A DNA stretch of 64,000 bases from Balamuthia mandrillaris (Eukaryota): NCBI GenBank assembly GCA_031835245.2, contig JAVKOQ020000100.1, forward strand, positions 62,001 through 126,000, given 5' to 3'. The notes under the pieces are model-generated. The model did not search any database and was not told the origin of the DNA. It was given only the letters and a program-made list of their open reading frames with translations. The translations under genes were made by a program, and so were the position numbers. Of this stretch, positions 4,628 through 12,052 are shown one piece after another (the first letter of the stretch is position 1; each line of letters starts with the position of its first letter).

Positions 4628-6529
4628 ATGGACAGCTACAAAACAAAGTTGTTCCTACGAGGGGGTCGCAACGTGCAGCCCTACCCTCACTTTGAGCTCG
4701 CTGAGCAGGTGCCCCGCCTGCCCATCCCCGCTTTGGAAGAGACCGCCAAGCGCTACCTGGAGTACCTGGCCCCCTTGGTCTCCAAGGAGCAGCTGGAACG
4801 CACCCGCGGCTACGTGGAGGACTTTATCAAACCGGGCGGCGAGGGGCAGGCCCTCCAAGAAGAGCTCAAGCGTTTGGACAAGGAGTCTCCTACCTCCTGG
4901 TTGGAGGGCTGGTGGGATGCCGGCTACCTGGAGTACCGCGTTCCGAACTTTGTGCACGTCAACCCCTTTTTCCTGTTCAAGCCGTCCGCTGTGCCAGTGT
5001 CCCAGGTGGAGCTGGCCGCTCGTTTGACGCTCGCCTCGGCCCACTTTTACCAGAAGATCGTGTCGGGGACGCTCTCCCCCGACAAGGAGAAGGACAAGCC
5101 GCTCTGCATGACTCAGTATGGTCGTTTCTTTGCCTCTTGCAGAGTGCCTCGCCCTGGCCGTTGTGCCATGTACACATTTCCCCGGCAGAGGCACATTGCC
5201 GTGTGCAGCCGTGGGTACTTTTTCGTGTTGGACATATTCCAGGACGAGGAGCTCCGTGTTCCTGTCTCAGTGGAGGCGCTTTCTTCTGCTTTGGAGCAGG
5301 TGCTATCTCACACCAGGGCACTGGGCACGAGCAACAACTGCCCCGAGGCTTCTATCGGCGCACTGACCGCTGATCAACGGGACTCTTGGGCAGCCACCAG
5401 GGCCAAGATGGTCTCCTCCAGCACTATCAACCAGCGCTCTTTGGAACTGTTGGACTCTGCCCTGTTTGTGTTGGTGCTGGACGAGGAGGCACCAGCCAAC
5501 CTCCAAGAGGCTGCCCCTGTGTTCCTCTGGGGTGACGTTCGTGCTCGCTGGTTCGACAAGCTACAGCTCATCGTGTGTGCGGACGGTCGCATGGCAGGCA
5601 TCAACATGGAACACAGCCCCTACGACGGTCACACCGCCCTTCGGTACCTCTCCGAAGTGCACAAGGAAGTGCATCAGGCTTTGTCCTCCGCTCAGCCGCA
5701 ACAAAATCAAGCGACTCCCTCAACAAGCAACAACCACACAGCCACACCTACTCCCAAAAGGTTGGAGTGGGAACTCTGTCCAGGCATCGTGGAGGGCATT
5801 CAAAGCGCCCTCTGCACGGCCAAATCCCTCATCGACACCACCCAGCTCAAGGTGCTGGACTTTACTCACTATGGCAAGCGCAGGATCACCAAAGAGTGGA
5901 AGTTCAGCCCCGATGCCTTTGTGCAGATGGCCTACCAGCTGGCCTGCTTCAAGCTGCGCGGAGTCGCGGAGAGCACCTACGAGTCCGCCATGACCAAGCG
6001 CTTCTTCCATGGCCGCACGGAGACCCTCCGCTCCGTCACCTCCCAATCGGCCGACTTCACTCGTTGCTTTACCTCCTCCTCTGCTTCCGATGCCGAGAAA
6101 GTGGAGAGCCTGCGCAGAGCCACCAAAGCACACGTGCAGAGAATGAACGAGGCCAAGAATGGCATGGGAGTGGACAGGCATTGGTTGGGCCTTAAGTCTT
6201 TGGCTGCTCACAAGCTGCAGCGTCTCCCCGGCTACTTTATGCCAGAGATGTTCCTCGATCCGAGTTATGGCAAACTGGCCACTTCAGTCCTCAGCACGAG
6301 CAACTGTGGAGAGCCTTGTTTGACTCTCTTTGGATTTGGTCCAGTCACACAAAAGGGATTGGGCATCGGTTACATGCTCCACTCTGAGGAGCTCATCTTT
6401 TGCGTGAGCAGCTTTGAGGGGGATGCTCCCAAGTTTGCTGCTCTGTTGGAGGAGAGCTTGTTGGAGATGGCTGCGCTGCTCGAGAGAAGCACCCCGAAAC
6501 AGCCGCAACAACAAAAGGCGCGTCTCTAA
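4628..6529 (+). CDS. Carnitine O-acyltransferase (choline/carnitine acyltransferase family) with a peroxisomal PTS1
   Basis: Motifs PRLPIPALEET, SWLEGWW, RWFDK, catalytic EHSPYDG, SPDAFVQMAYQLA, TYESA-TKRFFHGRTE, GMGVDRH, LSTS and GFGPV. The C-terminus -ARL* fits the PTS1 consensus. The CDS is uninterrupted. Confidence 0.92.
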   Translation: MDSYKTKLFLRGGRNVQPYPHFELAEQVPRLPIPALEETAKRYLEYLAPLVSKEQLERTRGYVEDFIKPGGEGQALQEELKRLDKESPTSWLEGWWDAGYLEYRVPNFVHVNPFFLFKPSAVPVSQVELAARLTLASAHFYQKIVSGTLSPDKEKDKPLCMTQYGRFFASCRVPRPGRCAMYTFPRQRHIAVCSRGYFFVLDIFQDEELRVPVSVEALSSALEQVLSHTRALGTSNNCPEASIGALTADQRDSWAATRAKMVSSSTINQRSLELLDSALFVLVLDEEAPANLQEAAPVFLWGDVRARWFDKLQLIVCADGRMAGINMEHSPYDGHTALRYLSEVHKEVHQALSSAQPQQNQATPSTSNNHTATPTPKRLEWELCPGIVEGIQSALCTAKSLIDTTQLKVLDFTHYGKRRITKEWKFSPDAFVQMAYQLACFKLRGVAESTYESAMTKRFFHGRTETLRSVTSQSADFTRCFTSSSASDAEKVESLRRATKAHVQRMNEAKNGMGVDRHWLGLKSLAAHKLQRLPGYFMPEMFLDPSYGKLATSVLSTSNCGEPCLTLFGFGPVTQKGLGIGYMLHSEELIFCVSSFEGDAPKFAALLEESLLEMAALLERSTPKQPQQQKARL

Positions 6530-6616
6530 ATGAACAACGTACAAACTTTTATTTTTTGTGTTGTTTTTTGTATTATCATTATCGCTTCTCTTCATCGTTC
6601 TCTTCTCTTCTCTTCT

Positions 6617-7628
6617 TTATGGAACAAAAGCTGCGTCTGATTCTGAGAAAGTGGACATTTGTACATCATCTCCTTTTCCTCTGTCATCCTCCTCCTCTTC
6701 TTTTCTTCTTTCATCTGCATACTGCCCGCTCATTCGAAAGGAGCGAGAGCGAAGCCACTTCTCGCACATTGACTTGACTCGCTCGTTCCCTTCTCTCTCC
6801 GCCGCCTCCAAAATGGTCTGAATGGCAGAAGTGCTCTCCTCGCGAACGGCCACGATGTAAGCCTCTTTCAGTTGAGAGAGGAGCAAGTGAGCGCGAATGA
6901 CGTTGGAGGGGAGATGCAGCTCCCGCAAGAAGAGAGTGGCGGAGGCGATGTCGCGAAGCTCCTCCCCGTAGACGGAGATAACGGCCATCAGCAGTTTGTC
7001 CATGTCTTCGTCGTTGATGTTGCCGCTCTTCTTGAGAACGGCTCGTTTCACCTCTTGTGTTGTCTTTTGTGTGTTTTGTTAGTGAGAAGAAGGAAAGCAT
7101 GAGAGAAGAGAAGATAGCGAAGAGGACAACGAAAAATAGATGAGAAGGGAGACGAAAGAAAAGAGAACCTTAAATCGAGCGAGTTTGGTAACTTTGGCGA
7201 TCTTCATTTGAAGGTCTTTCTCGGCAAGGCGTTCTCGTCGTAGCTTGCTAAAGTTTTCTGTGACTTCGGACTTGACATTGCGGTAACGCTTTCTTCCCGG
7301 AATGATGCACAACACCAAAAAGTCAACTATCCAACTGGCAAACAATATGAAGAGGTAGCCGACTACCAAAGAATACTGTCATCAAAAGAAGCGTTCCACA
7401 AACAAGGTTAATAGCGATAAGCAAAAGTGAGACCGAAGTGAAAGAGAAGTCAGTAAAGATAAAGGTACCAAAAGAGCGGTAAAGCTAAACTTGGGGACTT
7501 CGCCGCTGATTTGGAACGAGAACCTCCATCCATAATATGACACCAACGATCGCGTTTGCCCATCTAAAGCGTACTCCACTCGTGGTGCTGTGTTTCATTG
7601 TTATTTCAATGTCAGTTGGCAAAACCAC

Positions 7629-7666
<38 letters not shown>

Positions 7667-7896
7667 AACCTGGATGATTGGTAACAGGCGCGATGGAAGC
7701 TCGATAGTAATAATAGTTGATAGGATTGTCGTTAGGACATCCTCCGCTCGGTTTGAGGTACTTGCATTGGCCGTAGATAATATCGACGTCGATAACAGCT
7801 CCGCTGTCTCTAACCTTCTCTATATCCTCTACCCCAGCTGCTTTCAGCAACAACCTTTTATTTTTTGATTGTATGTTTATTTTCTCTTTGCTCTGC

Positions 7897-7940
<44 letters not shown>

Positions 7941-9495
7941 TTCGTTCTCTTTGTTTTGTTTTGTTTTTCTTCTTATAACATCATAGTTGAAAGGTGTCAA
8001 CGTACCCTACTTCGAAGATATCATCCTGATTAGGCGTTGACTCATATAGTACATTTCCTTTCGTGTCCAATAACTGATACAGCAAAACACAAAACAAAAC
8101 AATCAGTACATCATGCAATGAACAAACAAAAAGGTGGGAAAAAAAAAAAGAATAAGGTTGGAAGTAACCTGTCCGATAATTTCTTTAGCTTCTTTTTGCC
8201 AGTGAGTACTTTTGGGAACGTTTCCGCCTGCGTTGGAGCGTGTAGGTAAGAAACAAAGCACAATAAAAAGTAGATAATGAAGAAATGAGAACATACCATT
8301 AGCACTGGTTTCTTCTTCCAAAAACTGTTGTTAAAAAGGCAATGTTTAAAAAAAAAAGGAAAAATGCAGAAAGCATTGGTGAAGAAAGACGAGAGAAGCA
8401 GAAGCAGAACAAGAACATGAAGAGGAAGAAGAACAAGGAGGAGAATGTTGATTACAAGAGATGCCTCAGCCTCGTGAGAAATTTGCATCAGGAACTTTTC
8501 AGGAGATATAAAGTAATTGAAATGTTGCTCGCCGTCTGTCCAAGCTTTCGTGCATGCCCCATTCAGACATGTGTGCTCCACTCTCCGTTGGACTCGCCGC
8601 GATTCTGTTTTGGTTGCTACAAACAATGTTGTATCTGCTGATGCCTCTGTTTTGTTTGTTCTGTTAGAAGACCGATAGAGAGAGAAAGAAAAGAAAAAAA
8701 AAAAGAAGGAAAAGGAGAGCATTGAAAACGAGAGAAGCGAGAAGAGATAAAGCGGAACGACAGGAACAAAGAAGAGAACCAGTATAAACAATGTCATCAG
8801 CGTCGCCAAAGAAGCAGTGGCAGTCGGGTTCGGTGCCAGAAAAAGACTCGCAAGAAGACTCGCAATAAGTCAGATCGGCAGTCTTCAATGCAGCCGGCTG
8901 GAATGGTGTCGTAGTTGTTTTATTGATTAACAAGCACAGAAAAAGACAGAAGATGGAAGACAAAAGAACTAAATGAAGAAAGACGAGAGAAAGACCGAAG
9001 AAGAATGAAATGAGGCGAGAAAAGAGAACCTGCTTCAATGCCAGCGACATTGTTCCTGTAACAGTTCCAAGTTCGGCCCTTTATTATTTTTTTTTTTTGT
9101 TTGAGAAAAGGTTGAGAACAAGAAGCCATCAAAAAAAGAAGCGGCAAGAAAGAAAGAAAGAAACGACAAAAATGAAAGAGGCCACAAGAAAGAACAAAAG
9201 AAAGAAACGACAAGAAAGAAAGAAACTACAAGAAAAAAAAAAGAAACGACAAGAAAGAAACGACAAGAAACAAAGAAACGACAAGAAACAAAGAAACGAC
9301 AAGAAACAAAGAAACGACAAGAAAGAAAGAAGCAATATGAAAGGAAGGAAAACAAAAAACGAACCATCCATCCTGCTCGTAGAGCACATAGTACGCAATG
9401 AAAAAGAGAACGGCCAACACGCACACCCAATACAGCAGGCCCAATCGATAGTCTTTTATTCTCACTATGAGAGTTTGACGAACTCAAAAAATGAG

Positions 9496-10168: not shown

Positions 10169-12052
10169 ATGAAGAAGAAAGGAGCGAGCGGCGGCGGCGC
10201 GGAGGTGGCCTGCGACAAGCTCGCTTGGGGAGAACGGCCGGTCCGGTCGCTCGGCATGCTGGCCCCACCGCGCGTGCTGGCCTTCTCTCAAGAAGCAAAC
10301 GACCGGCTGTTTCTCTACCAAGGTTTGATTTTATTTATTTATTTATTTGTTTATTATTTTATTGATTTAAAAAAAAATAAAATAAATGTAAAAGGCGTTT
10401 CTTCTCAGCTTAGAGTGAGTGTGCTCCAAAGAGAAGGAGACGGTGGGAGTAGTGGCGGTGGTGACCTGCGCGCTAGGCTGGTCTACCAGGAGGCTGTGTT
10501 CGAGGGAGCTCCCGTTTGTGGTCTTCGTTTAGGTTTTTCTCTCTTGTCTTTTTTTCTTTTTCTTTTTGGTCTGACTCTCGCTCTCTTCCATCTGCTCTCT
10601 CTTATCTTCATCGTTCTCATTCTCGTTCTCGTTCTCGTTCTCGTTCTCGTTCTCGTTCTCGTTCTCGTTCTCGTTCTCGTTCTCGTTCTCGTTCTCGTTC
10701 TCGTTCTCGTTCTCGTTCTCTTCCTCGCAAAGTGAACAACTCTTTTGTTATTCTTTGGAGCAACAAAAACATTTGCGTTCTTCACCGCGAACCAGTAGTG
10801 GAGGATGACGCAGGAGAAGGAGCAGCTGCTCTGCATTTCAAAGTGCTTCTTCGCATGCAGCTCAAAGATTGGATCTGGGACGTCTTTCCTTTATCTTCTT
10901 CTTTTCATTCTATCCTCAAACCACAACAACTGCAAACAACCAAAGAAGAAAAAAGAGAAAAGGAAGAAGGAGACGAGTCGTATCGCTGTATTCGGTACTT
11001 AGTGGTTGGCTACGCGCATAACGATGTTGAAGTTTGGGATTGGAAAAGTCGCACGCTTCTTCACGCAGCTCGCAGCGAGCCTTGCATTCTCTATAGTCTC
11101 TCTTTTCACGCTAGCTCTTCTTCTTCTTCTTCTTCTTCTTCTTCTTCTTCTTCTTCTGATGCTGCTGCTGCTTCTTCTTCTGTTCCACGTTTACTTGTTG
11201 CTGCTGGAACAGTCTTTAACAAAGTGCTCATTTGGGACGTCTTCTCTCCAGTTGATGATGAGGACAAGGAAAAAGAGAAAGAGGAAGGGAGCAACATAAA
11301 AGATGGTCTCGTGGTTCCTCTTTTCAGTTTGGAAGGACATAAAGGCGTTATATTCGACATTTGTTGGTCAGAGGAAGGAGGAGTAACTTTTCTCTGCACA
11401 GCTTCTGACGATCGCAGCGCTCGTCTTTGGAAACTTCCTCTTCTTTCTTCTTCTTCTTCTCCTTCTTCTTCTTCTTGTTCTTCTTCTTCTTCTTCTTCTT
11501 CTGCGCCATTGGTTTTGAGTCCGTTGCTTTCGTTGTGGGGACATTCTGCACGTGTGTGGCGGACGAAACTTGTTCGTTCTCATATTATTACTGTTTCTGA
11601 GGTGTGTGTTTCCTTCTATCCTTTCTTTTCCTTTACTTCTTTCTTACTTCTTTCCTATCATTTCTTTTCAATCCGACCAAAAAAAAAAAAACCAGGATGC
11701 AACATGTAGAGTTTGGGATCGTCACACAGGAGTTACTTTGGCAACATTGAGGGGACATCAAGGCAAGAACGTGTGGTGCATGGCTGAGCACCGTATCTCT
11801 TCTGAAGACTCGCTTATTGTACGTTTATTTTCCCATTCCTTTTCTTCTCCTGTTCATTCAAAGTAAACACAACAATTCACAACAGGTGACCGGAGGAGGA
11901 GATTGTGTGTTGCGGATGTGGTCATTGAAGTCAGCAATAGAACATCATAGTGGAGGCAGAGCACAGCTGTTCGACATTCCACAACAGCAGCAACAGGTAA
12001 CACACTTTTCATCAACAACTAACTATCGCAGAAGTATACAAGACAAAAGAGA

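Follow-up and report, generated by a model that had tools for sequence, protein, structure and literature searches.

A P2X-family protein fused to the C-terminal tip of spastizin in Balamuthia mandrillaris and other Amoebozoa

The closest described relatives of the protein analysed here are the P2X proteins of Dictyostelium discoideum, P2XA-E, which belong to Branch 1 of the family and are intracellular, on the contractile vacuole; their ectodomain is luminal and their termini are cytoplasmic (PMC2787382). They share with the fused protein the P2X fold, the YxTxK motif, the aspartate of the second transmembrane helix (TM2) and the YxxxK motif. The canonical ATP-binding residues of P2X1 are K68, K70, R292 and K309 (PMC10620158). 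In Dictyostelium, dP2XB lacks one lysine and dP2XE both, and the two channels are still opened by ATP (PMC2787382); dP2XC gives no ATP current (PMC3774368). For Branch 1 P2X proteins, the loss of canonical basic residues is not decisive. Vertebrate P2X7 is likewise a P2X with a folded cytoplasmic domain captured by gene fusion (PMC7016195). That domain is a Zn/GDP ballast unrelated to the spastizin-like domain described below, and P2X7, unlike the fused protein, is a vertebrate surface receptor with canonical ATP residues.

The other half of the fusion comes from the family of spastizin (ZFYVE26, SPG15). Human SPG15 has a long solenoid and a FYVE domain, which bind SPG11 and PI3P; in the cryo-EM structure of SPG11-SPG15, residues 157-2453 of SPG15 are modelled, and residues 2454-2539 are poorly resolved and lie outside the heterodimer interface. 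AP-5 binds the WD40 hairpin of SPG11, and interactions of SPG11/SPG15 with Rab5A, Rab11 and Rag GTPases are cited, their sites not being placed (bioRxiv 10.1101/2024.06.14.598999).

Here we describe a gene of Balamuthia mandrillaris that joins a P2X protein to the last ~115 residues of spastizin. Positions refer to the 64-kb stretch of DNA that was analysed (the window), and the features are as follows.

9799-6617, minus strand: whole gene, 13 coding exons, 579 amino acids; all 12 introns are GT-AG and the translation equals P0001 exactly
9799-9716, 9642-9558, 9464-9365, 9078-9030, 8897-8780 and 8646-8456, minus strand: exons 1-6
8324-8297, 8227-8169, 8073-8006, 7854-7670, 7587-7469, 7375-7169 and 7063-6617, minus strand: exons 7-13
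9376-9450, minus strand: TM1, residues 62-86, a helix in the model, after the N-terminal YxTxK motif (Y51, T53, K55; exon 2)
7469-9364, minus strand: exons 4-11, P2X ectodomain (PF00864; Foldseek to human P2X4, E 2.7e-17; residue counts)
7307-7375, minus strand: most of TM2, residues 363-385, with Y369, L370 and D380 (gapless alignment to human P2X2; residue counts)
7271-7285, minus strand: YxxxK motif, Y393-K397 (tyrosine and lysine in 15/15 fused rows)
7169-7252, minus strand: predicted linker helix, residues 404-431, continuous with the first spastizin-like helix (model; fixed spacing)
7064-7168, minus strand: intron 12, 105 nt, GT-AG, phase 0 (joint 7063/7169 in a contig of run X1; unspliced in run X2)
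6752-7189, minus strand: ZFYVE26/spastizin-like C-terminal helical domain, residues 425-535, split by intron 12 (PF25569; profile; model)
6617-6751, minus strand: remainder of the last helix, followed by an acidic, disordered tail (~residues 557-579) and the stop codon; this part is unconserved among family members

The 13-exon model is identical letter for letter to the hypothetical protein QOT17_011148 of B. mandrillaris (NCBI, 579 aa), referred to as P0001; a second NCBI copy, QOT17_014606, differs from it in 7 residues and is an allele or a recent duplicate. Joints are recorded in RNA data for 8 of the 12 introns. Direct evidence for the junction 7169/7063 comes from one contig of one run. 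This 1496-nt contig of X1, a run taken as RNA by guess and whose contig skips GT-AG introns, starts within exon 4, reaches into the 3' UTR at 6587 and crosses the joint with 207 letters on the shorter side at a word depth of 20. Intron 12 is present unspliced in run X2. None of the indexed runs recorded as RNA contained this stretch. The raw reads of runs X3-X5 (3-5% of each run) included no read over 7169/7063 and no depth beside it; the junction 7375/7469 is supported by raw reads of X4 and X5. The runs diverge from the window by a few percent, and 15 of the 21 coding differences that were classed (49 further rows were left out) are synonymous, as are 5 of the 6 within the helical domain. 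A form retaining intron 12 would reach a stop codon 98 codons along the exon-12 frame and yield a P2X with a short hydrophobic tail; in thin data, the X1 contig, with no depth in the intron, gives no sign of it. Since the neighbouring carnitine acyltransferase gene is convergent and has its end at 6529, 87 bases away from the stop codon of the fusion, and tblastn found no other P2X copy in the 64-kb window, the last exon is not part of another gene. We regard the spliced fusion of P2X with the spastizin tip as genuine, with very little doubt.

In Pfam, P0001 matches P2X (PF00864) at 2.4e-17 (63.5 bits against a cut-off of 27) and TPR_ZFYVE26 (PF25569) at 1e-21 over residues 425-535; the last exon alone matches PF25569 at 3e-22 (79.6 bits, cut-off 27). 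These two families are the only ones above the Pfam cut-off in the 579-residue protein, and neither a FYVE domain nor the main solenoid is among its matches. Among solved structures, P0001 matches P2X1-4 and, at 3.3e-5, human ZFYVE26 residues 2422-2527; profiles built from the family strengthen the match to human spastizin, one to 5.5e-14 (residues 2409-2527) and a second to 7.5e-12. The fold and motifs thus assign the protein to the P2X family and the profile matches assign its tail to PF25569. As a whole it does not qualify as a spastizin orthologue, which would have the long alpha-solenoid, the FYVE domain and the SPG11-binding surface: human spastizin has 2539 residues with solenoid and FYVE domain, whereas the fused piece lacks both and corresponds mostly to the flexible tip outside the interface.

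The original prediction was made from the letters of the window. Its phase-0 intron at 7168-7064, joining the P2X part to the exon (7063-6617) with the peptide then quoted, proved exact, with GT-AG ends; the splice was recovered in the X1 contig, and its identification of the last exon with the C-terminus of ZFYVE26 agrees with the PF25569 and human ZFYVE26 matches given above. The intron exists, but it is not the joint between the P2X and spastizin parts for which it had been taken: because the first residue matched by PF25569 is 425, seven residues ahead of the intron, intron 12 lies inside the first helix of the domain.

The AlphaFold2 model has a mean pLDDT of 86 and a pTM of 0.62, which leaves the positions of the domains relative to one another uncertain. 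It consists of TM1 (residues 62-86), a beta-rich ectodomain, TM2 (358-385), a helix at 404-430 modelled at high pLDDT, and then seven helices. These seven lie in the exon-13 part of the spastizin-like domain, which is modelled with a pLDDT of 89.9 in an all-helical tail; the pLDDT falls below 50 for residues 559-579. Foldseek ranks P2X4, P2X3, P2X2 and P2X7 highest for the model, and the spastizin-like domain alone returned no Foldseek match at E <= 0.001. In a VIA fold search, the domain matched generic helical repeats, including the IFT80, IFT-A, COPI and Vps35 solenoids, with no standout (best Z 9.5 over 58 residues); spastizin is absent from this list, which would follow if structures leave most of its tip unmodelled. 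The nearest ESM Atlas clusters to residues 400-545 point to the Vps16 C-terminal region (PF04840; feature score 0.75, TM 0.61), which is below the naming bar and a lead only. In Pfam, Vps16_C goes unmatched at E up to 1, whereas TPR_ZFYVE26 matches at 1e-21, and Vps16 is not among the fold matches listed. The P2RX7_C ballast domain likewise has no Pfam match at E up to 1. A predicted complex of three copies of residues 398-545 scored 0.00 and gives no verdict.

An exhaustive homologue search gave 689 proteins at E <= 0.001, of which the best 150 were used. The same architecture was found in Phalansterium, Cavostelium, Ceratiomyxa and Pelomyxa (three copies) and in environmental contigs; the search in related amoebae called for by the original prediction thus added four named genera, all in one clade with Balamuthia. 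The members from Phalansterium solitarium, Cavostelium apophysatum and Ceratiomyxa fruticulosa come from transcriptome assemblies, and those of Pelomyxa schiedti are Pelo_16049, Pelo_7292 and the adjacent Pelo_17440/17441. The last two (P0015 and P0016) are adjacent models on one 7.6-kb contig that carry the first and the second half, respectively, of a fused P2X, and are likely one gene annotated as two. All five named genera belong to Amoebozoa (Discosea and three groups of Evosea), a range drawn from named members (20 proteins looked up), most other fused members being environmental contigs. Both Pfam families are present in 12 of the 36 proteins scanned, two of them being fragments whose P2X part for that reason scores below the curated cut-off, and P0153 adds one; three further proteins among the 36 have the helical domain only. 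A profile HMM of the domain, built from 16 of the 150 proteins, found one more carrier, an incomplete protein, and none among the other 133 at E < 1. Word-based searches for ZFYVE26 in Balamuthia, which are insensitive and blind above 2000 aa, returned only P0001, with nothing among proteins of 588-2000 aa.

In trees built from P2X columns only, the fused proteins fall on one branch, with a FastTree support of 0.994 (144 rows, 6 short fragments having been dropped) and an SH-aLRT of 99 in IQ-TREE (40 rows, 12 fused and 28 hand-picked unfused; the tree is unrooted and its sister group unresolved). A 377-residue protein of D. dimigraforme, P0046, which in view of its K67 we take to be the P2XA orthologue, lies outside the fused clade in both trees and has no C-terminal domain; its identity to the fused protein is 27% over 334 columns. 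The fused protein is not orthologous to P2XA by this measure, as its clade excludes P0046; P2XB-E were not identified among the tree rows. Fused members are 29-42% identical to P0001. The spacing from Y393 of YxxxK to Y500 of the KEAY motif is 106-108 residues in 13 of 14 fused proteins and 118 in one; beyond C531 the tail can be as short as 7 or as long as 95 residues. Among the seven long fused members, the helical domain is conserved about as well as the ectodomain (mean identity 0.31 versus 0.35). No sorting motif is common to the 12 tails scanned; dileucine and YxxPhi matches sit within predicted helices and are not shared by the fused members. The simplest reading of these alignments would be one old fusion, selected with fixed geometry.

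The ectodomain differs from that of unfused relatives at the ATP pocket (A103, K105, P322, S339 and Y340 in Balamuthia) and in its cysteines. P2X1 K68, K70, R292 and K309 correspond to A103, K105, P322 and S339, so that one of the four is basic. In the counts that follow, the fused set includes P0015 and the truncated P0049, and since all fused rows form one clade, they amount to one evolutionary event. Basic residues occur at position 103 in 0/7 fused versus 5/132 unfused proteins, at 105 in 1/7 versus 45/131, at 322 (P2X1 R292) in 1/13 versus 91/128, and at 339 in 0/13 versus 11/130; only position 322 discriminates among the canonical four, because the other three are poorly kept in unfused relatives too. 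Arginine 101, present in 85/132 unfused proteins, is found in none of the fused ones, 4 of 7 of which have lysine there; R340 (0/13 versus 95/130) and H341 (0/13 versus 89/130) are also missing from the clade. R325 shows the opposite pattern (9/13 fused versus 5/130 unfused), and this clade-specific arginine, with K101 and K105, could make up an alternative phosphate site. Summed over six pocket positions, two of which (101 and 340) were picked after inspection of the data, all six fused proteins counted have 0-1 basic residues, whereas 108 of 126 unfused proteins have at least 2 and the remaining 18 have 0-1; P0046 has four. The cysteines C122 (8/8), C132 (8/8) and C291 (11/11) are clade-specific and almost missing from unfused relatives. 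The first two lie in the exon at 8780-8897 and C291 in that at 7670-7854 (residues 291-300), both on the minus strand; in the alignment, C291 falls on one of the cysteines that form the last disulfide pair of metazoan P2X.

Thr339 is a gate residue of rat P2X2 (PMC3360091). Position 370 of the fused protein aligns gaplessly with T350 of human P2X2. The latter presumably corresponds to rat T339, the offset being taken from the D349 equivalence. Position 370 is L, I, V or M in 14/14 fused proteins, whereas it is G, A or S in 103/131 unfused ones and glycine in P0046; position 369 is aromatic in 14/14 fused versus 13/131 unfused proteins, and bulky TM2 residues occupy 368-370 and 377. D380, equivalent to rat P2X2 D349, is kept in 14/14 fused proteins, Y393 and K397 in 15/15, and YxTxK (Y51, T53, K55) in the 5/5 fused rows covering that region. 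As judged from these counts, the channel scaffold is kept in the fused clade and its pocket and gate are remodelled. We put the chance of canonical ATP gating of the fused protein at about one in three.

The captured stretch corresponds to spastizin residues 2409-2527, about two thirds of which belong to the free tip, and the known coat contacts are therefore not expected to be rebuilt. The case for coat binding through this segment is thereby weakened. The conserved, free helical tip is more likely to be a docking site for a further partner.

We propose that this two-transmembrane protein of the P2X fold, its cytoplasmic tail being a copy of the end of spastizin, would act as a trimeric cation channel of organelles that ATP does not gate in the canonical manner, and that its helical domain would serve as a rigid platform on which a membrane-trafficking partner docks. 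The gene would go back to one capture event early in the history of Amoebozoa. By analogy with Dictyostelium P2X, the trimer would hold three spastizin-like domains beneath the pore, and its Dictyostelium paralogues suggest that it sits, with a luminal ectodomain, in the membrane of endolysosomes or of the contractile vacuole. Another luminal cue, or binding of a partner, would open it, and a local flux of cations (calcium) would be delivered to the binder of the free tip, much as Dictyostelium P2XA reportedly links calcium to the activation of Rab and the fusion of vesicles. In this connection, CnrF has been described as a Rab11A GAP (PMC8923023). We hold this reading, of a cation channel in an organelle membrane that is gated in a non-canonical way and has three rigid domains for docking below its pore, as a tentative one, its probability falling somewhat short of one half.

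The original prediction pictured an ordinary ATP-gated intracellular P2X, tied by the fused domain to the AP-5/SPG11/SPG15 coat. Four of the five Dictyostelium P2X proteins are ATP-gated despite poor conservation (PMC3774368, PMC2787382, PMC10620158), K105 in Balamuthia, K101 in 4/7 and R325 in 9/13 fused proteins supply basic residues near the pocket, and some 45 captured residues (spastizin 2409-2453) lie inside the modelled part of SPG11-SPG15. In spite of these points we place this alternative on the unlikely side, given that the whole clade has lost K/R322, R340 and H341, that SPG15 2454-2539 lies outside the interface, that AP-5 binds via SPG11 and that a FYVE domain and main solenoid are absent. 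Its ATP gating has lost ground, with one of four canonical basic residues in a clade without the basic residues of unfused P2X, dP2XE being the counter-case; so has its coat-interaction module, as the tip falls outside the SPG11 interface and AP-5 binds the WD40 region of SPG11. A non-conducting pseudo-channel, in which the P2X fold would be a membrane anchor, a luminal sensor or a silent subunit and the helical domain the working end, would account for the bulky TM2 residues and the remodelled pocket and has a natural parallel in dP2XC (PMC3774368), but D380, YxTxK and YxxxK are invariant in the covering rows and the full-length ectodomain is conserved, with cysteines of its own; we consider it rather unlikely.

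Quite improbable, in our estimate, is a structural ballast that would tune only gating or stability, with no trafficking partner. Fixed spacing and a continuous linker helix do suggest mechanical coupling to TM2, and P2X7 offers the precedent of an unrelated captured ballast domain (PMC7016195); the best-kept motifs of the family, however, are those it has in common with human spastizin, which fits a retained binding surface, although constraints of the fold could have the same effect. As for two adjacent genes merged by annotation or assembly, the junction 7169/7063 is seen in one assembled contig and is crossed by no raw read, and the annotation splits one Pelomyxa copy into two genes. Against this, the spliced contig spans P2X exons and the last exon, the same fusion occurs in transcriptome proteins of three other genera, and the downstream neighbour is the convergent carnitine acyltransferase gene ending at 6529, so that an artefact is scarcely credible. 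To return to the channel with docking domains, it may be that this P2X subfamily, an ancient amoebozoan one, has lost ATP sensing and become a luminal sensor tied to trafficking, its three spastizin tips below the pore recruiting, or competing for, the partner of spastizin's own free C-terminus, with that binding or a non-nucleotide cue as the gate; this we consider unlikely.

No description of a P2X-spastizin architecture was found in the literature searched (titles and abstract openings, most subscription journals being outside the search), in line with the original expectation of an undescribed one, and Dictyostelium is the sole amoebozoan in the P2X phylogeny of PMC10620158. The fused proteins form a new subfamily of P2X in which a cytoplasmic module was captured, comparable to the P2X7 ballast. 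Both halves are known families, and the two-domain assignment is already visible in the automatic Pfam annotation of the NCBI protein. The fusion would represent a second capture of a folded cytoplasmic domain by a P2X, independent of P2X7 and much older, retained by two phyla of Amoebozoa in a fixed geometry, and it links a P2X channel with the spastizin family. A clade with altered pocket and gate would provide a natural test of P2X gating by cues other than ATP. The poorly resolved tip of SPG15 appears here isolated as a self-contained domain under long selection, and a small stable construct may offer a way to seek its binding partner. Were the luminal-sensor reading true, the fusion would serve as a Rosetta stone for what SPG15, a human disease protein, does with its C-terminus.

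Other additions to P2X proteins were seen among the relatives P0058, P0077, P0092, P0116, P0145, P0070, P0096 and P0133: EF-hands in five proteins, an IQ motif in two and an N-terminal LicD domain in one. Capture of a tail by protist P2X is not rare in kind, since unfused relatives have EF-hand or IQ tails, and calcium-feedback P2X channels may perhaps form an undescribed group. A P2X cluster of the ESM Atlas (score 0.76, a lead only) has 74 members, 76% of them viral and most commonly Nucleocytoviricota (phylum known for 17). In the window itself, a mitochondrial carrier gene (PF00153, 3316-3618, plus strand) stands directly upstream of the intronless carnitine/choline acyltransferase gene (PF00755, 4631-6529, plus strand), the two being possibly neighbours of the carnitine shuttle, and a WD40-repeat gene (10822-11604, plus strand) starts divergently ~1 kb upstream of the P2X gene.
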